Sequence record: PZ452583.1 | Reading direction: 5' to 3' (one strand) | DNA from: a phage | Length of the DNA: 64,000 nt | Part shown: positions 8,453 through 26,861 of the stretch, one piece after another | How the letters are laid out: every line of letters starts with the position of its first letter | Position numbering within the stretch: the first letter of the stretch is position 1 | Position numbers and translations under genes: made by a program | Notes under the pieces: model-generated | Told to the model about the DNA's origin: nothing | What the model saw: the letters and a program-made list of their open reading frames with translations, nothing else | Databases searched by the model: none

Positions 8453-10266
8453 TGGTGTTTAACCCTATGCATGATTTCTTTATTTTTACCGAGATTAAAT
8501 CCGCGCTCGTTCGGATTTCCCAAATAACCACATGTTCTTCTTATGGTATTCATCTTTTTAGGATCAGTTTCTCCACAAATAGAACAAACAAATCCGTTTT
8601 CAGTAGGAGTCATTTCATGGGTACTTCCGCATGTAAAACACTTATCTACTGGCATGTTAACACCAAAATAATCTAAATGTTGTGCAGCATAATCCCACAC
8701 GGCCTCAAGACCTTTTAAGTTATTTTTCATATCAGGAAGTTCAACATAAGAAATGTGACCACCTGTCGCAATGAAATGATATGGTGCTTCACGAGAAATC
8801 TTTTCAAACGGAGTAACATTTTCTTCTACTGAAACGTGGAAACTGTTAGTGTACCAGCCTTTATCAGTAACATCCTTTACACTTCCATATTTTTCGGTAT
8901 CAAGTTTACAGAAGCGATAACACAAGTTTTCAGCAGGAGTAGAATACAAACTAAAAGCAAATCCGGTTCTTTCAGTCCATTGTTTAAGATGAGTATTCAT
9001 TTTAGTTAAAATTTCTTGTCCAATATCACGACCGACAAGAATATTCAATTCGTGAATACCAATGTATCCTAGAGACACTGAACTTCTACCGTTTTTAAAT
9101 AACTCAATTATGTCGCCATCAGGTTTAAGACGAACCCCGAATGCACCTTCTTGGTAAAGAATAGGAGCAACAGTTGCTTTAACTCCTTTTAAGGAACTAA
9201 TTCTACACATCAAAGCTTCAAAACATAAATCCATTCGTTCATTGAACAATTCAACAAATTTCTGTTCATTGAATTGTGTTCCAATATAAGAATCTAACGC
9301 GATGCGAGGAAGATTCAATGTTACAACACCAAGATTATTACGTCCATCAAGAATTTCATTGCCAGTCGAATCTTTCCATACGCTCAAGAAACTACGGCAA
9401 CCCATCGGAGAAACAGGAACAGATGAACCAGTGATAGCTTTATTGTTCTTAGCTGAAATAATATCAGGATACATCCTTTTGCTTGCACACTCTAGAGCAA
9501 GCTGCTTAATATCATAGTTCGGATCATCTTTATAAAGATTAACACCTTCTTCGACGAACATAACAAGCTTAGGGAAAATAGGAGTTATCCCATCACGACC
9601 GAGACCTTTAATACGATTTTTCAGAATTGCTTTCTGAATCATTCGTTCAGTCCAGTCAGTTCCCGTACCAAATGTAATTGTTACAAAAGGAGTCTGTCCG
9701 TTTGAACTAAAGAGAGTATTTACTTCATATTCATACGCTTGGAATGCATCGTATACATCTTTTTCTGTTTTAGATTGAGCATAATTTAACGCATCAGCGA
9801 TTTGCCATTTTTCTGCATCCTCAATATGTTTTGCATAGGTGCGTTTAACATAAGGAGAAAGTACTTTATCTACATTAGCAAAAGTCGTTCCGCCATATTG
9901 ATGGGAAGCAACTTGCGCAGTAATTTGTGCCATAATTGCAGTAGCAACACCGATTGATTTAGGAGTTTCAATCTGCGCATTACCAAGCTTAAATCCTTTC
10001 TCAAGCATTCCTTTTAAATCTACTAAACAACAATTAGTAAATGGAAGAGCAGGGGAATAATCAATATCGTGGAAATGGATAATTCCGCTTTCATGCGCTT
10101 TCATAATAAAAGACGGGACCATATTTTTGGCAATGTGTTTAGACACAATACCAGCCATAAGGTCCCGTTGAGTTGGAAAAACACGAGAATCTTTATTAGC
10201 ATTCTCGTTTAAAAGGTCTTTATTAGTTTTATGAATCAATCCTTCAATTTCTTTTTCAATTGTCAT
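8449..10266 (-). CDS. nrdD: Anaerobic ribonucleoside-triphosphate reductase, uninterrupted
   Basis: 605 aa continuous ORF; C-terminal glycyl-radical and Zn-Cys region (CFTCGSTHEM...CSICGE); no intron present. Confidence 0.95.
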   Translation of the reverse strand: MTIEKEIEGLIHKTNKDLLNENANKDSRVFPTQRDLMAGIVSKHIAKNMVPSFIMKAHESGIIHFHDIDYSPALPFTNCCLVDLKGMLEKGFKLGNAQIETPKSIGVATAIMAQITAQVASHQYGGTTFANVDKVLSPYVKRTYAKHIEDAEKWQIADALNYAQSKTEKDVYDAFQAYEYEVNTLFSSNGQTPFVTITFGTGTDWTERMIQKAILKNRIKGLGRDGITPIFPKLVMFVEEGVNLYKDDPNYDIKQLALECASKRMYPDIISAKNNKAITGSSVPVSPMGCRSFLSVWKDSTGNEILDGRNNLGVVTLNLPRIALDSYIGTQFNEQKFVELFNERMDLCFEALMCRISSLKGVKATVAPILYQEGAFGVRLKPDGDIIELFKNGRSSVSLGYIGIHELNILVGRDIGQEILTKMNTHLKQWTERTGFAFSLYSTPAENLCYRFCKLDTEKYGSVKDVTDKGWYTNSFHVSVEENVTPFEKISREAPYHFIATGGHISYVELPDMKNNLKGLEAVWDYAAQHLDYFGVNMPVDKCFTCGSTHEMTPTENGFVCSICGETDPKKMNTIRRTCGYLGNPNERGFNLGKNKEIMHRVKHQ

Positions 10267-11890: not shown

Positions 11891-12106
11891 TTACCCCAAT
11901 TTAACCATACAATCGCCGTATTTCCACTTAGAAATAGACTTTTCACCATTAGAATAATAAACTTCGAGTTTAGCACGATTATTTTTAATTTGAATAACCT
12001 TGGCTGTCATCAAAGTTCCATACCCATAATAAACTGCAACTTCATCACCTACATATACCGCGCTTCCGCGGTAATCATGAATATAGTCATTTCCTTCGAG
12101 CATCAT
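11891..12106 (-). CDS. Hypothetical protein, 71 aa
   Basis: ATG verified; coupled with nrdC. Confidence 0.5.
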   Translation of the reverse strand: MMLEGNDYIHDYRGSAVYVGDEVAVYYGYGTLMTAKVIQIKNNRAKLEVYYSNGEKSISKWKYGDCMVKLG

Positions 12107-12366
12107 TTAAAATATTCTCGCAGCTGGTCAAATCCACCAATATGACTTCCATCAGGAGCAAATACCTGGGGCATTGTCAAGCCGATTTGAGTATCACGAC
12201 CTAGTTTAGTCAGAAGCTCAGCGATTTTCTCATCATCAAAAACACCTTTTTCCGGCATAATGTTGATAAATTCAAACGGCTGTTTCTTCACGGTCAAAAG
12301 ACGTTTTGCATTATCGCAATACACACATTTATGAATGTTGCTATCATAACCATATACTTTAAACAT
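12103..12366 (-). CDS. nrdC: Phage thioredoxin/glutaredoxin
   Basis: 87 aa, MFKVYGYDSNIHKCVYCDNAKRLL... with CVYC; matches T4 NrdC as recalled. Confidence 0.92.
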   Translation of the reverse strand: MFKVYGYDSNIHKCVYCDNAKRLLTVKKQPFEFINIMPEKGVFDDEKIAELLTKLGRDTQIGLTMPQVFAPDGSHIGGFDQLREYFK

Positions 12367-12612: not shown

Positions 12613-13002
12613 TTAATCCAAAATATTATTAGGCATTGGTTGAACACTCACAAGTTCTTTAAAGAACTCAGTAGAGTCAGGCAATTTAACCATTTCCGGA
12701 GCATGCTTACTGAATTTATGTTTACATTGACGGCATTTATATTCAAGCTCTGGTTTACGCCAGTTAATCAATTGAACTTGTTCAGTACCGCATTCAGGGC
12801 AATTAGGAACGTTTTTAGAAGCTCTTTCACGTCGTTCAACCATAGCCATAATAGCATCCCATGCTGGAGGTTTAAAATCTAAATCGTCGCAGCCGTGAAT
12901 CTTTCCACGCATTTCCATATCATCTTCCTCACCAGCCATAATAATTTTAATTAAACTAGAATTACTTGAAGCTGCAATGTCTTCTAATAAACGCTTTTTC
13001 AT
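12613..13002 (-). CDS. Zn-ribbon protein, 129 aa (nrdC.2 position)
   Basis: CPECG...CRQC Cys pairs; ATG verified. Confidence 0.6.
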
Positions 13003-13928
13003 TTCAATACCTCAATAGCATTACGTAAACCATTTGCTTTTGCATTAAGAGCTTTTAACAATTTGGTGTGTTCTGCAATTTGGGCTTCAACTTCAATCAA
13101 ACGGGCATTGAGATATTCACGTTCTTCACTCAGATTATCAACCTTTTCTACTTTAGGCTCTTTTACAACTGTCTTATATGTATTAGGGTTCTTCAGTTTA
13201 ATTAGAATGCGTGAACTGTATAACATTGAACCATTATCTTCGGTTTCGTCATACATTTCCACTACGTCCATAATTTTTAACATCATGCGGAGTTTATAAG
13301 ACAACGAACGAATAGTTTTGTTGTGCTTATTAATTTCTTTAGCTGTCATGGTGCCAAGATTACGTGAGTAATAATAAGGAACCTGGATATTAATTAATAC
13401 TGATGAACCACCTGGCTTGTGTGTTACTTCATCAGCAATAACCCAGTCCTTAACATGAACTGTATTTGTACGGTCATCGCCCGCGGTAAATAGTTTGCGA
13501 GCATGCTTAAAAAGCATATTCACTTGGTCATTGAATTGACAAGCAAATTTATCAGCAAATTTAGTTTCAGGAATGGTAGAAAACCAATCAGCCAAATGAG
13601 TCTTTTTAACATCATTAACAATAGTAAATTCAACCAAATCGGTTATAGATGTCTCAGATTTAATGAAGCTCGGCTTCATAAAGTTTTTAATGTTCTCATG
13701 AGCTACAGTAGAAGATAACATACGAGAACGTTTAAACCATTCAAGCAAATTGCCTAACGAATGAGAATAAGCGTTTTGAGTATCTTTACAGATATGATTT
13801 TCCTGACCAACATATTGAAGGAAATCACGAAGAATATTATTGATTACTGCTCTGTGCCCGATCTGATAATTACGGTGTTTAGTAATAAGACTGTCAAAAT
13901 AATCAATATAATGTTTACGAGTTTTCAT
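12999..13928 (-). CDS. Hypothetical protein with C-terminal coiled coil, 309 aa
   Basis: ATG verified; last ~50 aa heptad-like ([42 protein letters not shown]). Confidence 0.65.
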   Translation of the reverse strand: MKTRKHYIDYFDSLITKHRNYQIGHRAVINNILRDFLQYVGQENHICKDTQNAYSHSLGNLLEWFKRSRMLSSTVAHENIKNFMKPSFIKSETSITDLVEFTIVNDVKKTHLADWFSTIPETKFADKFACQFNDQVNMLFKHARKLFTAGDDRTNTVHVKDWVIADEVTHKPGGSSVLINIQVPYYYSRNLGTMTAKEINKHNKTIRSLSYKLRMMLKIMDVVEMYDETEDNGSMLYSSRILIKLKNPNTYKTVVKEPKVEKVDNLSEEREYLNARLIEVEAQIAEHTKLLKALNAKANGLRNAIEVLK

Positions 13929-13980
13929 ATTCTTCTCACTTGGTTAATGGTTTATACTCCGAGCCATCCTTGGCTTTAAA

Positions 13981-14982
13981 TTACTTAATTAACTGTAAAG
14001 CTTGTTCAAGACGATCAAGACGATTAACAGATTCTTCCCAAATCCTTTTAGCCTGCTCATATTCTTTCTGCGCTTTATTAGAAATTTCTAGAACTTCTTT
14101 ATAAGCTTTTTCTAGTGCAATAACTTCTGGACGAATTTCTACCGGTTCAGGTGAATCGTCAAGATTATCCATTAGTTCCTCAAGGGTAGTTTCTTCTTTA
14201 GAAGTATTCACAATTTCCTCACATTTTTGTTGATAAATTTCTTTATCAGTAGGTGAATAAGCACATTTCACTTCACGAAGACTAATTACAATTTTATATC
14301 CTTCCCATCCGCATATATTCTTAAAAGGATATGTATGAATATTTTCTACTGTTTCCATACAAAGTAGTGCAGTCTCTAATTGTCGAGTTATATCACTAGC
14401 AATTGAGAAAAATTTATTAATATTCTTTTGGTTAGCGTTTGGTGTAAAAAATCCATAATTCACAAAAATAGCTACTTTATTTTCATCAAGCTCATATTCT
14501 TTTACGATAATCATATCAGAAGCCAAAGGATGAATTTGACGATAATCGCCATAACATAATTTAGAAGCTGATTTTAGAATTTGTCCTTTGAAAAGTCTGA
14601 AATTACTAATCCAACGACGAGTAAAAATATTCTCAGGGTCTTCTTTATTATTAAGATGATAAGAATTAACATCACCGAACCAATTATATCCTACTACATC
14701 TTTAGTTCGTTTAATTTCTTTCCCAAATTTACTAAGAATATCTCTGTTGACTAAGTATGAAAGAAGACGAGACCCTTTAAAGGTTTTCTTAATGTCATCT
14801 TTATCTGTACGACTAGAAATTTCACGAACTTCATGAATAAATTTGCCGGAAGAAACAATACTTGCATTAGTATTATTGAGCCATTGATTGATAATAGAAA
14901 TCACACTATTCTTACTAGACATAGGTTTAACTTTATCATCAATAACGCTGTTGAACGATTTAATATATTCGTTGCGAGTCAT
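13981..14982 (-). CDS. Hypothetical protein with C-terminal coiled coil, 333 aa
   Basis: ORF-track 5' end runs through early promoter 15011..15040; start set at ATG 14982 with SD GAGGAG. Confidence 0.65.
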   Translation of the reverse strand: MTRNEYIKSFNSVIDDKVKPMSSKNSVISIINQWLNNTNASIVSSGKFIHEVREISSRTDKDDIKKTFKGSRLLSYLVNRDILSKFGKEIKRTKDVVGYNWFGDVNSYHLNNKEDPENIFTRRWISNFRLFKGQILKSASKLCYGDYRQIHPLASDMIIVKEYELDENKVAIFVNYGFFTPNANQKNINKFFSIASDITRQLETALLCMETVENIHTYPFKNICGWEGYKIVISLREVKCAYSPTDKEIYQQKCEEIVNTSKEETTLEELMDNLDDSPEPVEIRPEVIALEKAYKEVLEISNKAQKEYEQAKRIWEESVNRLDRLEQALQLIK

Positions 14983-15010
14983 ATTAATCTCCTCAGTAGA
15001 AAGTAAGAAC

Positions 15011-15040
15011 ATTATACCACATCCTTGTGGCAAAGTAAAC
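15011..15040 (-). promoter_or_regulatory. T4-type early promoter (-35 GTTTAC, 18 bp, -10 TATAAT) with CCACAAGGATGTGG just upstream of -10
   Basis: Read on minus strand between the two coiled-coil ORFs. Confidence 0.6.
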
Positions 15041-16044
15041 TAGTTCAGTGCATTTAGTGCATTGTTCAATTTAGAACGTTGCTTCGTGAGATTTTTTACT
15101 TTTTCTTGAGCTTTTTCTAGCATCTTTTCAGCTTCTAACACTTCATTAGTTGCTTTAACGAGTTCATCATCTACTGCCTTAAGGGACTTCTCAATCGCAT
15201 CCGCGTGCCATTTTTCAACAGGTTTAAGACTCGGATTTTCAACAGGAAGAAAATTCACTTTATTGAATTTCCATGCATCTTTATTACCTGAACTATACAT
15301 CCAAAATTTAGGATCGTTTGATGAGTAATTAGTTTGGGGTTCAGGTTTTTTCTCTTGTGTAACTTCGTCCTTTCTCAAAAAATCATATTTAAATGAAACG
15401 ATCATATCAAGTTCATATGTTGTCGTATCTAATTTAAATCGTTCGAAATGCTGCGAAATCTTAGATTGAACAGCATCAACAACATCCATATACTTAAATG
15501 CTTCTGTCAACTGTGATTTAAGGCATTCACAAATTGAAAGAGAATTTTTTGTATTAGGTTTAAAGCTAATTCGTGCAGTTCTATTATTTTCTTTTAACGG
15601 TCTTACTTCCATCTGAAGAGTATAACCATCAAATTTCAGATTCTTTAAGTTAATATCAGAACCTTTTAATCGACTAGCCGTAGACAAAATTTGCTTTAAT
15701 TGTTTACGGAATAGAGCAATAAATCTCCATTCAAGACGATAATGATTTGGATTAAAAAATCCTGTTGATAAATCAACCTTACTCTGACCAACGCCTTGAA
15801 CAAATAGAGGATTTTTATAATCAATAGTTTTACAGAAATCGGTGAGCTGCTCACGAGCAGTCATTTGAGTAATATACCCTGCTTCATTAAAATGACGTAA
15901 CCATTCACTGCTATTCATATACTTAAAGTGAATATCACGATTAACTTTATCAGGGTCTAAATTATTTTGGCACAAAAATGTCATAACATTACGGGTATAG
16001 CTGGCATTACGAACCATATCTTCAATTTGAGAACGAGTTTTCAT
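15040..16044 (-). CDS. Hypothetical protein with C-terminal coiled coil, 334 aa
   Basis: ATG verified; C-terminal helical/charged tail. Confidence 0.65.
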   Translation of the reverse strand: MKTRSQIEDMVRNASYTRNVMTFLCQNNLDPDKVNRDIHFKYMNSSEWLRHFNEAGYITQMTAREQLTDFCKTIDYKNPLFVQGVGQSKVDLSTGFFNPNHYRLEWRFIALFRKQLKQILSTASRLKGSDINLKNLKFDGYTLQMEVRPLKENNRTARISFKPNTKNSLSICECLKSQLTEAFKYMDVVDAVQSKISQHFERFKLDTTTYELDMIVSFKYDFLRKDEVTQEKKPEPQTNYSSNDPKFWMYSSGNKDAWKFNKVNFLPVENPSLKPVEKWHADAIEKSLKAVDDELVKATNEVLEAEKMLEKAQEKVKNLTKQRSKLNNALNALN

Positions 16045-16052
16045 AGTGTTCC

Positions 16053-16940
16053 TTAAGATTTAAGTAAATCAACAATTTTAATTAATTTTTCACGCTCAGA
16101 TTTAGCTTTACTACTCAATCCAGATAGTCTGAAAATTTCATCGTCATACTGTTGAATAGAAATATTCAGCTCTTCAATTTGCTTATTAAAATAATCAATT
16201 TGTTCAGAATGTTTTTCGTTACTACGAACTGGTACAGGTTTTGTAGGAAATTTAGTTAAACTGGATTCATCCGGGCGATAAATTAAAATGCAATTTGAAC
16301 CAATCGAGCATTTAGCACCAGATGAATATTCTAACGTTCCAGCTTCTTTTAAAACTTCAAAAGCTAAACAGAGATGATGCCCCATATTAACATAATCAGT
16401 AGAGCGAGCTCTGATATAATAATCATCGCCGCGAATACTAAATTTAAAGCATTTAAGGTCTTCTGTATTATTGGTCTTAAAAATCATTTGTTTATCTAGA
16501 CCTTTAGCTAATCGAGCGCCTAATGCTAATAATCGTCGTTGATTTTCCCACAAATCTGCGATCATTTGGTCAAATGATAATTTCGGCATTAGTCGACCGT
16601 AAAGATCATAGCCTTTATTATAATTGCGAAGAATTTCACTTGCATTAATACGAGACAATGCTCCAATTTTATTAAGGGCTTTCATAATGCGATTAGATAA
16701 ACCCATTCCAGACCCGTTTGTTCGCTGTAAATGTTTTTCTAATCCAAATCCAATATCAACTTTAAACTTATCTAAAATTTCTGCATGAACATCTCTGTCA
16801 ATAACATTCAAATCCAAAGTTGGGTTAAATCTATGAAAAAATTTATCTGGCTCTCCACGACGAAGTACAGTCCATTCATTCAATTTTTTATTAACTAAAG
16901 ATTTAATTACTGCATTGACATTATTAATTACTACTGACAT
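16053..16940 (-). CDS. Hypothetical protein with C-terminal coiled coil, 295 aa
   Basis: ORF-track start is TTG at 16961; ATG 16940 has SD GAGGA. Confidence 0.65.
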   Translation of the reverse strand: MSVVINNVNAVIKSLVNKKLNEWTVLRRGEPDKFFHRFNPTLDLNVIDRDVHAEILDKFKVDIGFGLEKHLQRTNGSGMGLSNRIMKALNKIGALSRINASEILRNYNKGYDLYGRLMPKLSFDQMIADLWENQRRLLALGARLAKGLDKQMIFKTNNTEDLKCFKFSIRGDDYYIRARSTDYVNMGHHLCLAFEVLKEAGTLEYSSGAKCSIGSNCILIYRPDESSLTKFPTKPVPVRSNEKHSEQIDYFNKQIEELNISIQQYDDEIFRLSGLSSKAKSEREKLIKIVDLLKS

Positions 16941-16947
16941 ATTTTCC

Positions 16948-17355
16948 TCACTCAATTTCAATTTTACTAAATACGCAGAATATGATGGAAAAGACTATAT
17001 AAGCACCGCATACAGATTGAACTAATACCATTCCAAAGAACCAAACAATATTATCAAACAATGTCTGTTTTACGTCGAAAGGACGTAAACTTACAGTAAT
17101 ATTATCGCCTTTTTCTATTGATGAATACATCTCTGGGGAAATATATTCGCTAAATCTATAACCGTCTTTGAGTTCATATACGGCAATAAACGATAAACTA
17201 GACCCCTTTCCTTGAGTTCCTGTAAGGGTATTAACTACAGTAACATCATAATCTTTATAATGCATATAATCATTAATTGCGTAATAACCATATGCAACTA
17301 CTACGCATAAACAACATATCAATAAATTCAATCTTTTAATTATCAACTGTTTCAT
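16948..17355 (-). CDS. Membrane protein, 135 aa (N- and C-terminal hydrophobic segments)
   Basis: ATG verified; hydrophobic stretches at both ends. Confidence 0.55.
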   Translation of the reverse strand: MKQLIIKRLNLLICCLCVVVAYGYYAINDYMHYKDYDVTVVNTLTGTQGKGSSLSFIAVYELKDGYRFSEYISPEMYSSIEKGDNITVSLRPFDVKQTLFDNIVWFFGMVLVQSVCGAYIVFSIIFCVFSKIEIE

Positions 17356-17410
17356 AATAATCTCAATTAAAAGGGCTTAGAACCATTATACCATCCTTGG
17401 TATAAAGCGG

Positions 17411-17938
17411 TTATGCGAGTACCGTCTTTAACCGTTCTTCAAACTTCCGAAGAGTATTCTGGCGTTCAGCTCTTTGCTTTTTGTAAGTTTCAATACGCTC
17501 TGAAATGAGAGTGTATCGTTCATTTACTGATTCTTTCATAAAATCAGGAATTTCACGAGAAGCTTTAATCTCGTCAAATTTATCAATAACAGCTTGCTCT
17601 TCAGCAATTAAGTTATCATACATCAAAATATCTTTCTTGATGAACTCAATATCTTCTTGAGTTACACGAGATAATTTAGATGCTTTATCCTTTTTGTACT
17701 GTTCGTTAGTATCACGAGACCAGTGTAATGTACGATTTTTATTCGTATTCTTGTAAATTTCTACAATACCAATCTCATCGATAATAACGATCCAATTCCA
17801 ACGGGATTTGTAAATTTGTCCTCCATCAACCGTGATTTCACCACCGATTGAGACATCATTAAAGAACTTGCTTTGAGCTTCAGATTTAAATTTACCATCA
17901 TTGTAGTTTACCAAGTTGAAAATATCTTTAGCATTCAT
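17411..17938 (-). CDS. Hypothetical protein with C-terminal helical tail, 175 aa
   Basis: ORF-track 5' end is promoter read-through; ATG 17938 with SD GGAGG just downstream of early promoter. Confidence 0.6.
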   Translation of the reverse strand: MNAKDIFNLVNYNDGKFKSEAQSKFFNDVSIGGEITVDGGQIYKSRWNWIVIIDEIGIVEIYKNTNKNRTLHWSRDTNEQYKKDKASKLSRVTQEDIEFIKKDILMYDNLIAEEQAVIDKFDEIKASREIPDFMKESVNERYTLISERIETYKKQRAERQNTLRKFEERLKTVLA

Positions 17939-17966
17939 TTTCTGTTCCTCCGTAGTTGATAGTTGT

Positions 17967-17996
17967 ATAATACCACAGAGGAACAGTCTTGTAAAC
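17967..17996 (-). promoter_or_regulatory. T4-type early promoter (GTTTAC, 18 bp, TATTAT) inside a hairpin whose 3' arm is the downstream SD
   Basis: 9-bp inverted repeat CTGTTCCTC (17942-17950) / GAGGAACAG (17978-17986) brackets the -10. Confidence 0.65.
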
Positions 17997-18402: not shown

Positions 18403-19371
18403 TTATTTCAGAAGAGTAACCTCAGCGATTTCTTCCCAACCGTTTTTGTCGGTCATAATAAAGTCAGCAAGATAAAGCGCAGTACGCAGTGAAACATTGC
18501 GTAAACGATTAACATTGACTTTCATCCATGATAATGCTTTATAAGTTTCTTCATCAGAAAGACCGCGCTTTTGCATCATGTCAGTTGAAAGAATAACATC
18601 TTCAACCCTGACCATAATTTCTTCATTAGTGTGAACACCCAAATCCAAATAAACTGAGCGGGACACTAATGCTTGTAAATGTGGAGCAAGTTTAGTACCA
18701 CGGTCTAATTCGCGGTCAATGTCAACGTTTGTGATAAAAACAATCGTTCCTTTAAATTCAAACTCACGCTCAATGCCTTTTTCTTCTAAGTAAGAAGATG
18801 CGGTGCTCCAGCAGACTTTACGGGTCTCTCCGGTGTCCAGAGCAGCTTTCAGAAGATTAAGAATGTCCATATCAGAGAAAACATCCACATCATCAATCAA
18901 AAGGACAGAATTCTCTTCACGATTATTCCAAAGCTGTTCATAAAGACCGATACCAGAGATTTTACCATTAATGCTTTTATATTCAATGTATCCAATATCA
19001 TTTGCTTTATTTAAAGCTTTATCTAAAGAATATGTTTTACCTATACCTGCCGCGCCAGAGATAATTAATGAACGAATATTTCCATTAATAATACCATTCG
19101 TCATCATTCCCATAACATTAAATCTTTTATTAATGCGGGTTTTCATATCTTCATATGATTCTTTAACTTCTTCAACTTTTACACCATCATATGAAATGTC
19201 TGATTTGTAAACCCAAACACCGCGACGTTTACCATCAATTTCAACAAAAACTTTACCATCTCCTTGTGCATCTACCGGAGCATTATCTGGGAACCATTCA
19301 CCTAAGAGCTCAAAAGTTCCAGAGATTTCTTTACCGAAGTAGATACCCTTATTGATAGTTACAGTTTTCAT
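18403..19371 (-). CDS. AAA+/P-loop ATPase, 322 aa
   Basis: Walker A GAAGIGKT and Walker B LLIDDVD in translation; ORF-track 5' extension is promoter read-through; ATG 19371. Confidence 0.75.
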   Translation of the reverse strand: MKTVTINKGIYFGKEISGTFELLGEWFPDNAPVDAQGDGKVFVEIDGKRRGVWVYKSDISYDGVKVEEVKESYEDMKTRINKRFNVMGMMTNGIINGNIRSLIISGAAGIGKTYSLDKALNKANDIGYIEYKSINGKISGIGLYEQLWNNREENSVLLIDDVDVFSDMDILNLLKAALDTGETRKVCWSTASSYLEEKGIEREFEFKGTIVFITNVDIDRELDRGTKLAPHLQALVSRSVYLDLGVHTNEEIMVRVEDVILSTDMMQKRGLSDEETYKALSWMKVNVNRLRNVSLRTALYLADFIMTDKNGWEEIAEVTLLK

Positions 19372-19405
19372 TTTATTCTCCAAATCCGTATCAGTTGATA
19401 GTTGT

Positions 19406-19435
19406 ATAGTACCATAAAGCTTTATGCTTGTAAAC
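19406..19435 (-). promoter_or_regulatory. T4-type early promoter (GTTTAC, 18 bp, TACTAT)
   Basis: Read on minus strand immediately after terminator 19466..19483. Confidence 0.6.
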
Positions 19436-19465
19436 AACTTTGTGAAAAATTTTTGAAATAAAAAA

Positions 19466-19483
19466 GGGAGCCCGAAGGCTCCC
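19466..19483 (-). terminator. Rho-independent terminator (GGGAGCC-UUCG-GGCUCCC then UUUUUAUUU)
   Basis: 7-bp GC stem and U-run read in sequence just after the stop of ORF 19486..20499. Confidence 0.7.
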
Positions 19484-19485
19484 TA

Positions 19486-20499
19486 TCATTTATAATAACT
19501 TCGATGGTTTTCAAGATAGACCTTCTCAAGGAAGTCATCCCAGAAACCCATGTCTACTGTTTTAGGCATACCATTCTTAGAAGCGTCAGTAGATGCTGCT
19601 TCTACTTGATCGACCACATCTTCCAAAAACTCTTGAACTGTTTTAAATGGATGTTTACCCAACTTCACGTCGAGAATAAATGGAGCATCTTGGAGTGGAT
19701 AAACCAAGTCACCAGTTTTGTAAATTTCCAATAGTTGAAGTCCACCACGACAAGCATGACTCAGAGCTTTCCAGTCAATACCTTCATTGGCTTCGGCCTT
19801 ACGAGCACGTTCACCATATTCAGCATCTAATTTGTTCAGTGACTGCTTAAGCTCAATAAGAGAAAGCGTTGTCTGATATTTACGACCCAACACAGTGTAG
19901 AACGTTTGTGGGCCTGTTTTCTCATGATTATGGAACACCCATTCACAGAATTCGTTTTCTGGAAGACGATGCTTAATATCTTCAACTTTAGTGCGACGCT
20001 GCTTAATGGAACCGTCTTCTTGGTAATCAACCCATTGCTCAGGGATTTGATTAACTACTTTCAATACATCACGTAATGCAGCCAAACGAGAACCCTTGAC
20101 ACCGTATTTAGAAGCTTGCTTGCGGACATATCCTAAATATGATTTCATGTTAGTCGTATAAAAACGAGAACGGTTGTCTTGAATAAACTTCCACACATCA
20201 GGCAAATCTGATTTAACTACTAGTTCAGGTGGAGTGTGAAGCATATCTAATGCTACGGTTTCACCATCTGCTGCTAATTTAAAGAAATATTTAAGACTGT
20301 ATAGTTCATGGTCAATATCATCTTTAGTGTTTTTAGATGATGTGTTGTTAGTGTTTTTACTCATGTGCTCTTTGACATTTCCGATAAGAATATCGCGAGC
20401 AGGAGGAACAAAGATTTCTTTAAAATCTACATCAGATTCTGGGGTAGAAGTTCCATAAAGATGACTACCAAAATAGCTTTTCATTACTGTTTTCATCAT
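19486..20499 (-). CDS. Nucleotidyltransferase-fold protein (pol-beta superfamily motif), 337 aa
   Basis: N-terminal GS-x10-DVD (FGSHLYGTSTPESDVDF) with a further Asp in VALDML; long helical C-terminal domain; ATG verified. Confidence 0.7.
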   Translation of the reverse strand: MMKTVMKSYFGSHLYGTSTPESDVDFKEIFVPPARDILIGNVKEHMSKNTNNTSSKNTKDDIDHELYSLKYFFKLAADGETVALDMLHTPPELVVKSDLPDVWKFIQDNRSRFYTTNMKSYLGYVRKQASKYGVKGSRLAALRDVLKVVNQIPEQWVDYQEDGSIKQRRTKVEDIKHRLPENEFCEWVFHNHEKTGPQTFYTVLGRKYQTTLSLIELKQSLNKLDAEYGERARKAEANEGIDWKALSHACRGGLQLLEIYKTGDLVYPLQDAPFILDVKLGKHPFKTVQEFLEDVVDQVEAASTDASKNGMPKTVDMGFWDDFLEKVYLENHRSYYK

Positions 20500-26323: not shown

Positions 26324-26861
26324 TTACTATTTCCAAAAGTTTATTATTTTTAAGGTAATTAGCCTTTTCTAGGACTTCAGAAGCATATTTAGAACCTGCT
26401 TTAACATTCCATCCCGAATTATAAGAGGATATTGCTTTTCTTATATCGCCCTTATGTATATTTAACCAATAAGAAAGTTCAATGTACGCCCAGGAAGCTG
26501 AATTGGACCGTTTATTCAACATTCTTTTTATTTCAGCATCGGTCATATTATAACCAAGTTCCTTAACTCTTGCTCGCATAGTAGGCAAATAATTTTGGAA
26601 CATTCCATAAGCGTGATGCTTTGGTTTAGATTTTAAATTAACTCCGCCAGAGCTTTCTTGCCATAAAATAGCAGCCATTATATGACCTAATCCGCTCTTG
26701 TGGATATTTTTGTGTGTTTTATATTTTCCATCCTTAGAAAATTGTTCCCCGAATTGATACGCGTAACGCATGTTATCGAGTTGGACATTACTGAAAGTAT
26801 GCTCGGAGCTATGTGCCATCATTGAAATGGCCAATAGACCAGCGAGTAGTGCTTTTCTCAT
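26316..26861 (-). CDS. Secreted lytic-transglycosylase-like protein (GH23/SLT fold), 181 aa
   Basis: Signal peptide MRKALLAGLLAISMMAHS; catalytic-type ILWQESSGG and YGMFQ motifs. Confidence 0.65.
   Translation of the reverse strand: MRKALLAGLLAISMMAHSSEHTFSNVQLDNMRYAYQFGEQFSKDGKYKTHKNIHKSGLGHIMAAILWQESSGGVNLKSKPKHHAYGMFQNYLPTMRARVKELGYNMTDAEIKRMLNKRSNSASWAYIELSYWLNIHKGDIRKAISSYNSGWNVKAGSKYASEVLEKANYLKNNKLLEIVND

Follow-up and report, generated by a model that had tools for sequence, protein, structure and literature searches.

The nrdC.3 to nrdC.6 genes of a T4-like phage encode a divergent family of tandem paralogues that includes the orthologue of the anti-Dsr1 factor NrdC.5

Introduction

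Phage T4 counters the bacterial defence Dsr1 through its nrdC.5 gene: a T4 clone with a deletion including nrdC.5 does not plate on cells carrying dsr1 of ECOR17, and plating on Dsr1-carrying cells is recovered when nrdC.5 of T4 is supplied from a plasmid (Srikant et al., 2022; PMC9391042). That work offers no structure, mechanism, or link to NrdC.3, NrdC.4, or NrdC.6. Here we describe the genes nrdC.3, nrdC.4, nrdC.5, and nrdC.6, and their neighbors nrdC.7 and nrdC.8, in a 64,000-nucleotide stretch of phage DNA (sequence record PZ452583.1; hereafter the window), in which an earlier note, made from the letters alone, had described a run of five accessory proteins at 12999-17938. The source phage is a Tequatrovirus (a T4-like coliphage), and this 5-kb stretch is 97% identical to many Tequatrovirus genomes; the gene names used here are taken from the annotated records of KMB22 and T4, and all six genes are on the minus strand.

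Dsr1 is a sirtuin defence, whose sensor, a tetratricopeptide repeat (TPR) superhelix, has been reported to bind the phage major capsid protein (PMC12803255). Two neighbors of the locus also have published anti-defence functions: gp49.2 is an inhibitor of OLD and NrdC.1 an inhibitor of Septu. A functional analogue of NrdC.5 is the SPbeta phage protein DSAD1, which binds to a SIR2-type NADase defence and so blocks it; it targets DSR2 and not Dsr1, it is not known to have a coiled-coil tail architecture, and the likeness is one of function. For the promoters of the locus, the closest described elements are the promoter-early stem-loop (PeSL) cassettes of T4-type phages (Arbiol, 2010, PMC2839356; Comeau, 2014, PMC4122927), for which a T4/PST consensus of TTTACW-N17-TAYWAT was given, along with degraded copies in phage PST at about 43-51 kb, a position corresponding to the region studied here (PMC2839356, PMC4122927).

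Relationship among NrdC.3, NrdC.4, NrdC.5, and NrdC.6

We find that NrdC.3, NrdC.4, NrdC.5, and NrdC.6 are tandem paralogues, which together make up one fast-evolving superfamily specific to Straboviridae. The genes are located at 12999-13928 (nrdC.3, 309 amino acids, with a head at residues 1-235 and a tail at about 266-309), 13981-14982 (nrdC.4, 333 amino acids, starting at the ATG that follows a GAGGAG ribosome-binding site), 15040-16044 (nrdC.5, 334 amino acids), and 16053-16940 (nrdC.6, 295 amino acids). NrdC.3 and NrdC.4 both fall into phrog_1435 (E-values of 8e-116 and 2e-166, respectively), and NrdC.6, the divergent member, into phrog_2257. NrdC.5 matches the Pfam family DUF7235 (PF23882) over residues 1-334, with 387.7 bits against a cut-off of 30; it is the orthologue of the T4 anti-Dsr1 factor, being 90% identical to T4 NrdC.5 and located between nrdC.6 and nrdC.4, the same position as in T4 and KMB22.

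The relationship was examined with profiles built on orthologues from T4, VR7 (Gaprivervirus), JS98 (Dhakavirus), and RB69 (Mosigvirus), plus those from large protein databases. Among the five proteins of the earlier note, BLASTP detected a single pair, NrdC.3 and NrdC.4 (24% identity over 226 residues), which hhalign aligned with a probability of 97.7%. The NrdC.3/NrdC.4 profile was in turn aligned to NrdC.5 with a probability of 96.7% (E-value 3.7e-10, 244 columns, from the head to the last residue of the tail), and the profile of NrdC.3, NrdC.4, and NrdC.5 with JD18 gp070 was aligned to that of NrdC.6 and CC31p082 with a probability of 93.8% (E-value 1.7e-7, 128 columns). Comparisons restricted to the heads gave 9e-13 for NrdC.3 and NrdC.4 and 5e-5 for NrdC.4 and NrdC.5, while unrelated proteins (NrdC.10 and NrdC.11) and reversed alignments, used as controls, gave P of 0.3-0.5. 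The three pairwise profile alignments agree mutually, and in them the helices of the NrdC.5 model coincide with those of the NrdC.6 model (see below). HMMER gave a concordant picture: the NrdC.6 profile matched JD18 gp070 with an E-value of 1.8e-5, and five of the six best non-member matches of the NrdC.3/4/5 profile were NrdC.6 orthologues (E-values 0.008-0.06). Thus the earlier proposal of a diversified paralogue family is upheld for these four proteins by profile-profile comparison and structure models, although the same note had taken their N-terminal domains to be unrelated-looking, and these domains turn out to be homologous.

Two conserved head motifs, S-R-x-L-S...A...L-x-N-F/Y and F...L-L-x-x-A-x-R-L-x-x-G-D, are found in all four proteins. 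The looser pattern M-D/E-V-V-E/D, which had been proposed for all five, is present in NrdC.3 (MDVVE), NrdC.4 (METVE), and NrdC.5 (MDVVD), at positions that hhalign aligns with one another; it is only loosely recognizable in NrdC.6 and is missing from NrdC.8. The family also extends to positional homologues in more distant phages: gp070 of Klebsiella phage JD18 (which has an HMDVV motif) and p082 of Enterobacter phage CC31 are both encoded immediately upstream of nrdC.2 and both have heptad-rich C-termini. Their neighbors of about 260 amino acids, JD18 gp071 and CC31p085, were considered as well and are not family members. In addition, one metagenomic protein (P0195) combines an NrdC.4-type head (E-value 1.2e-5) with an NrdC.5-type tail (E-value 4.3e-7).

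In current classifications, Pfam and PHROGs divide these proteins into three or four separate families of unknown function, including DUF7235, PF26897 ("Phage_T4_Y04OP", of the NrdC.3/4 type), and PF26899 (of the NrdC.6 type), the latter two seen as precomputed labels on relatives; here they are merged into one superfamily. The genes themselves have long been known, but the link across NrdC.3-6 appears to be new, since neither the Pfam and PHROGs assignments nor literature keyword searches yielded a superfamily link, a common architecture, or a shared cassette for the four. Sequence searches of Pfam, NCBIfam, and PDB returned no informative match for NrdC.3, NrdC.4, NrdC.6, or NrdC.8; and, in line with the earlier remark that no catalytic motif is visible, library searches detected no catalytic motif or enzyme family in NrdC.3-6.

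Predicted Structures and Heptad Tails

We built AlphaFold2 models of NrdC.5 and NrdC.6 as monomers, each on an alignment of 26-28 homologues. The NrdC.5 model (mean predicted local distance difference test score, pLDDT, of 73.9) has N-terminal helices followed by a core of helices at residues 104-114 and 116-127, strands at 143-150 and 154-161, a helix at 168-183, and strands at 189-199 and 209-218. The elements of the NrdC.6 model (pLDDT 76.7) come in the identical order: helices at 123-132 and 134-146, strands at 167-170 and 173-176, a helix at 186-199, and strands at 204-210 and 216-221. Judging from these models and the profile alignments, the family is a four-part protein, with a predicted helical N-terminus, a two-layer alpha/beta core (alpha-alpha, beta-beta, alpha, beta-beta), a linker predicted to be disordered, and an amphipathic C-terminal helix of 45-58 residues. 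In NrdC.5, the predicted linker covers residues 226-273 (15226-15369, minus strand; pLDDT below 50) and is the most variable segment among the Tequatrovirus copies; the C-terminal part, residues 276-333 (15046-15219, minus strand), is modeled as one long helix with pLDDT of 71-84. In NrdC.6, a low-confidence linker (226-240) precedes helices at 245-271 and 277-294, so that the predicted helical tail (residues 245-294; 16059-16208, minus strand) is broken at SGLSS.

The earlier note had given all five proteins a heptad-like C-terminal tail. We tested this claim using the Fourier component of hydrophobicity at a period of 3.5 residues against 5000 shuffles, in place of a crude score of a/d positions that had missed NrdC.3 and NrdC.4. 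The periodicity is significant for the tails of NrdC.4 (p<0.0002, best period 3.50; residues 288-333, at 13984-14121, minus strand), NrdC.5 (p<0.0002), and NrdC.6 (p=0.0004), the latter two also having helical tails in the AlphaFold2 models. For NrdC.3 (residues 266-309; 13002-13133, minus strand) the periodicity is marginal, the 3-4 spacing of hydrophobic residues can be read in the sequence, and hhalign aligns the segment to the NrdC.5 tail. Real heptad helices are thus present in the tails of three proteins and probably in that of the fourth; the claim finds no support in NrdC.8 (p=0.14). The NrdC.5 tail also has weak matches to the coiled coils of Smc and keratin. Comparisons of tail-only profiles between paralogues were weak (P of 5e-4 to 0.3), and do not by themselves prove homology of the tails.

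Foldseek searches of BFVD with both models retrieved uncharacterised proteins of 300-375 amino acids from other T4-like phages. The matches of the NrdC.5 model include proteins of Erwinia phage Cronus, Klebsiella phage Mineola, Serratia phage CBH8, Citrobacter phage Merlin, and Aeromonas phage 65.2; those of the NrdC.6 model include proteins of Enterobacter phage IME523 and of Acinetobacter phages Acj9, Acj61, and fHyAci03. One Cronus protein (A0A2S1GM98) is significant for both the NrdC.5 (E-value 4e-8) and the NrdC.6 (E-value 4e-4) models. Tail terminator/completion proteins (lambda gpU, SPP1 gp17, DUF3168) and the RNA polymerase alpha N-terminal/RPB11-like domains gave scores in the range of a shared common fold. 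A sub-threshold sequence match to tail-completion proteins was seen in only one of 21 family members, and this link could not be strengthened; compared with the tail terminators, the NrdC proteins are early and non-structural, and have an extra N-terminal helical region and a predicted coiled-coil tail.

Promoter-Hairpin Cassettes at the Gene Junctions

A recurrent sequence next to a TATAAT or TATAAA box had been noticed at the junctions, and it is indeed there: CCAAGGATGG occurs exactly at 13964-13973 and 17391-17400, and CCACAAGGATGTGG near 15020, all on the minus strand and each beside TATAAA or TATAAT. The pattern AGGATG-N1-12-TATAAW has four matches against 0.6 expected, and none of 100 shuffles reached four; the fourth match, at 26718, is inside a coding region and was discounted as a chance occurrence. 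The remaining three belong to T4-type early promoters with an AGGA-loop hairpin inside the spacer. The one upstream of nrdC.4 (15011-15040, minus strand) reads GTTTAC-TTTGCCACAAGGATGTGG-TATAAT, with a predicted hairpin energy of -8.2 kcal/mol; it has 10 of 12 consensus matches and a TG before the -10 hexamer, and it overlaps the stop codon of nrdC.5. The cassette upstream of nrdC.7/nrdC.6 (17385-17408, minus strand) has a weak -35 hexamer and a ACCAAGGATGGT hairpin that overlaps TATAAT (-6.3 kcal/mol predicted), and a degraded copy upstream of nrdC.3 (13951-13974, minus strand) has the GCCAAGGATGGC hairpin followed by TCGGAG and TATAAA (-5.8 kcal/mol predicted), with no good -35 hexamer.

The cassette is kept at equivalent paralogue junctions in T4, KMB22, Manna, VR7, JS98, and RB69, that is, in four genera. 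For example, the element at the nrdC.3 junction is also found in T4, KMB22, and Manna, and the element at the nrdC.4 junction in T4, KMB22, VR7, and RB69; in VR7 and JS98, the cassette of the nrdC.7/nrdC.6 type directly precedes nrdC.6. The stems vary by compensatory changes across five phages (GCCA/TGGC, ACCA/TGGT, AACCA/TGGTT, TCCA/TGGA, and CCACA/TGTGG), with predicted energies from -5.8 to -8.2 kcal/mol. The promoters of nrdC.8 and nrdC.10 are of the ordinary early type without a hairpin. That one cassette is common to the paralogues suggests that promoter and gene were duplicated as a unit.

Similar to PeSLs, these elements consist of an early promoter and a stem-loop, are intergenic, are repeated among accessory genes of the hyperplastic region, and include degraded copies; the element upstream of nrdC.4 agrees with the PeSL consensus (GTTTAC-N18-TATAAT, with an internal hairpin), and partial copies stand upstream of nrdC.3 and nrdC.7. 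However, the stem-loop of a PeSL is located upstream of the -35 hexamer, whereas the hairpin described here is inside the promoter spacer (loop AGGA, stem CCA/TGG plus covarying pairs). Recombination endpoints at the element, as for PeSLs, were likewise not found here, the deletion/fusion junctions in Manna and in the metagenomic protein P0057 (see below) being within coding sequence; but differences in gene content do border the cassettes, with nrdC.7 inserted after one and nrdC.3 or nrdC.4 present or absent beside one.

Distribution and Plasticity of the Locus

At the sequence level, the four families are confined to Tequatrovirus, Mosigvirus, Dhakavirus, and Gaprivervirus. Phage records number 742 each for NrdC.6 and NrdC.8, 604 for NrdC.5, and 554 for NrdC.4 (the last by tblastn), and about a quarter of the genomes that have NrdC.6 and NrdC.8 lack NrdC.4 and NrdC.5. 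A HMMER search with the NrdC.5 profile against 1.84 billion representative proteins gave 14 matches, none of them beyond T4-like phages except P0192, a repetitive sequence that we rejected as a false positive.

The window copies share 61% (NrdC.3), 90% (NrdC.4), 90% (NrdC.5), 97% (NrdC.6), and 98% (NrdC.8) identity with those of T4, and NrdC.3, NrdC.4, and NrdC.5 vary much more between close relatives than the flanking genes do. The window NrdC.3 allele is 76% identical to that of Mosigvirus RB69, as compared with its 61% to T4, in contrast to flanking genes that share 90-98% identity with T4, a pattern that suggests allelic replacement between genera. Between orthologues, the tails are better conserved than the heads: 60-70% versus 31-44% identity in NrdC.6, 61% versus 40-50% in NrdC.4, and 77-85% versus 61-78% in NrdC.3. 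The 51 Tequatrovirus sequences of NrdC.5 that were compared differ mostly in their N-terminal helices, in the beta-hairpin at about 190-215, and in the linker.

Several genomes have rearranged copies of these genes. In Salmonella phage Manna (4215-5252), a single gene of 345 amino acids stands in place of nrdC.6, nrdC.5, and nrdC.4; it joins residues 1-269 of NrdC.6 in frame to the linker and tail of NrdC.4 (251-333), with the junction at a DDEI/CEEI microhomology. The metagenomic protein P0057 is a fusion of NrdC.5 (145-266) to NrdC.3 (129-309), with nrdC.4 deleted, and in NrdC.6 of Shigella phage Sf25 (P0077, 378 amino acids) residues 176-258 are duplicated internally. In the T4 reference genome (NC_000866), nrdC.6 has a 1-nt deletion that changes GAGCTGAATATT to GAGCTGATATT (locus 12067-12140, against 16053-16190 in the window), so that the protein is frameshifted and cut to 275 amino acids while the tail-coding sequence persists out of frame farther downstream. 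Either the laboratory strain has mutated here or the reference sequence contains an error. A further candidate, P0076 (173 amino acids), appeared to have a foreign head on an NrdC.5 tail, and was rejected as evidence of tail modularity, being most likely an assembly chimera: in its source (ENA contig k141_89665, 803 bp, assembled with megahit), bases 480-803 are 100% T4-like and bases 1-479 match Klebsiella phages.

NrdC.8 and Neighboring Genes

The block from nrdC.3 to nrdC.8 belongs to the hyperplastic early region of this T4-like phage. In the direction of transcription it follows nrdC.11, nrdC.10, and nrdC.9 and precedes nrdC.2, nrdC.1, and nrdC; the plus-strand open reading frames within it are short and antisense; and the GC skew is negative over the first ~44 kb of the window, this block included, consistent with minus-strand transcription. 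All five reading frames of the earlier note are present at the positions and lengths it gave (taking as start the ATG with a good ribosome-binding site). The note overlooked a sixth, nrdC.7 (16948-17355, minus strand; 135 amino acids, phrog_2547), which encodes a predicted membrane protein outside the family, between its fourth and fifth frames. In many GenBank phage records nrdC.1 to nrdC.11 are all labeled "thioredoxin", an error inherited from the gene symbol; among the nrdC-named genes, nrdC alone encodes a true thioredoxin.

NrdC.7 and NrdC.8 are unrelated neighbors, and the superfamily at this locus thus has four members. NrdC.8 (nrdC.8 at 17411-17938, minus strand; 175 amino acids, phrog_2274, a separate family) consists of a small beta-rich head of about 90 residues and a helical C-terminal half. 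Compared by hhalign with every other family profile and with the superfamily profiles, it gave P of 0.06-0.47; its best period is 3.6, without significance at 3.5 residues; and no relatives of it were found in the JD18 and CC31 loci. Its identity is 68% or higher in every one of the 742 records in which it occurs. Upstream of nrdC.8 is an ordinary T4-type early promoter (17967-17995, minus strand; GTTTACA, 17 nt, TATTAT), which has no CCAAGGATGG hairpin. The ribosome-binding site of the gene (17939-17960) contains GGAG (ACGGAGGAAC); moderate cleavage by the RegB endoribonuclease has been reported at the GGAG of T4 nrdC.8 (PMC1702504).

In Tequatrovirus, nrdC.7 is located directly behind a promoter-hairpin cassette, between nrdC.8 and nrdC.6, and its homologues in RB69 (9248-9661) and CC31 (17365-17793) are located between nrdC.2 and nrdC, a relocation that borders the cassette. 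On the other side of the array, NrdC.2 (12613-13002) has 129 amino acids, compared with 104 in T4, and four cysteines arranged as CPECG...CRQC, suggestive of a zinc ribbon. The genes nrdC.10 (AAA+ ATPase-like) and nrdC.11 (nucleotidyltransferase) are adjacent at 18403-20499, with a strong GC-rich terminator hairpin between them at 19465-19484. NrdC.11 is found in 1505 phage records, including those of Vibrio, Acinetobacter, and Sinorhizobium phages, and is conserved far more widely than the paralogue array.

Discussion

Taken together, we consider it probable (we would put it at about 0.6) that the four-paralogue NrdC.3-6 array functions as a battery of inhibitors, acting stoichiometrically against host immunity, with variable heads, coiled-coil tails, and a repeated early cassette. 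The genes would be transcribed early from the promoter cassette with its spacer hairpin, which probably moved along with the gene during duplication and shuffling, and their products would be non-enzymatic proteins, made early, that bind host immune proteins stoichiometrically. The variable head would select the target; the conserved tail would assemble into a coiled coil specific to each paralogue, rendering the inhibitor multivalent and so giving it avidity for oligomeric defence complexes. The anti-defence role that we infer for NrdC.3, NrdC.4, and NrdC.6 appears to be new.

Several observations weigh against this interpretation. An experimental function exists for NrdC.5 only, through its T4 orthologue and not through the allele of the source phage. 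The link to NrdC.6 is based on thin alignments and on the order of predicted secondary-structure elements, and NrdC.6 shows 95-99% conservation within Tequatrovirus, which is not typical of an arms-race gene. Oligomerization of the tails is suggested by periodicity and a monomer model, and the periodicity of the NrdC.3 tail reaches only p=0.043, with a best period of 3.45. Finally, the truncated tail of NrdC.6 in the T4 reference would mean that the tail is dispensable in the laboratory.

The alternatives differ in whether they dispute the family or its function. That the similarities are due to chance or composition (an AT-rich genome and coiled-coil bias), the reading frames being unrelated orphan genes, could draw on the single BLASTP pair and on the weak tail-only comparisons; but the head-only comparisons are significant, the independent structure models concur on the order of elements, and the controls with reversed alignments and unrelated proteins effectively refute it. 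Including NrdC.8, so that all five proteins form one family of variable heads on coiled-coil tails, as first proposed, is very improbable. The C-terminal half of NrdC.8 is charged as well as helical, with hardly any proline or glycine, and a 175-amino-acid protein of Klebsiella phage KPV15 appears weakly in the Foldseek lists of both models (E-values 0.02 and 0.12); yet both conserved head motifs are missing from its short, beta-rich head, its profile comparisons and periodicity are not significant, its promoter is without the hairpin cassette, and its uniformly high identity is a very different pattern of conservation.

With the four-member family accepted, its role could also be other than immune: the tails may dock all four proteins on one common host or phage partner (e.g., the transcription machinery) while the heads deliver different activities, the anti-Dsr1 effect of NrdC.5 being a special case. 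This is unlikely. Another unlikely alternative is that the long C-terminal helix is itself inhibitory, e.g., through insertion into the groove of the TPR sensor in Dsr1-like proteins, the head serving as a scaffold or oligomerization module. Helices and extended peptides are common ligands of TPR domains. The tails are conserved inside each orthologue group and distinct between paralogues, and the sensor of Dsr1 is a TPR superhelix with the phage major capsid protein as its ligand (PMC12803255). However, the variation between close relatives is in the N-terminal helices, the beta-hairpin at 190-215, and the linker, not in the tail, which better fits a head-mediated arms-race interface; and a 3.5-residue periodicity with hydrophobic a/d positions is a signature of self-association. 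More speculative still, and held with low confidence, is an extension of the inhibitor battery to a modular platform that comprises NrdC.3-6 and genus-specific relatives across Straboviridae: a tail-terminator-like head might act as a decoy or plug for sensors of conserved phage structural proteins (TPR sensors of the Dsr1/Avs type), the paralogue-specific tails might prevent cross-assembly while keeping each inhibitor multivalent, and the cassette might be the unit of duplication and shuffling.

These results advance the annotation in a useful and testable way and do not describe a new kind of system. Although T4 serves as the reference lytic phage, no function has been assigned to most genes of its hyperplastic regions; grouping with the anti-Dsr1 factor NrdC.5 makes the orphans NrdC.3, NrdC.4, and NrdC.6 specific candidates for anti-defence screens, and a predicted map of head, linker, and tail is now available for dissecting how NrdC.5 blocks Dsr1. 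The repeated promoter-hairpin cassette provides a concrete case of array growth and reshuffling. The platform seems to be widespread, judging from structural relatives in T4-like phages of Klebsiella, Enterobacter, Erwinia, Serratia, Acinetobacter, and Aeromonas, and this would bear on host-range prediction for therapeutic phages.

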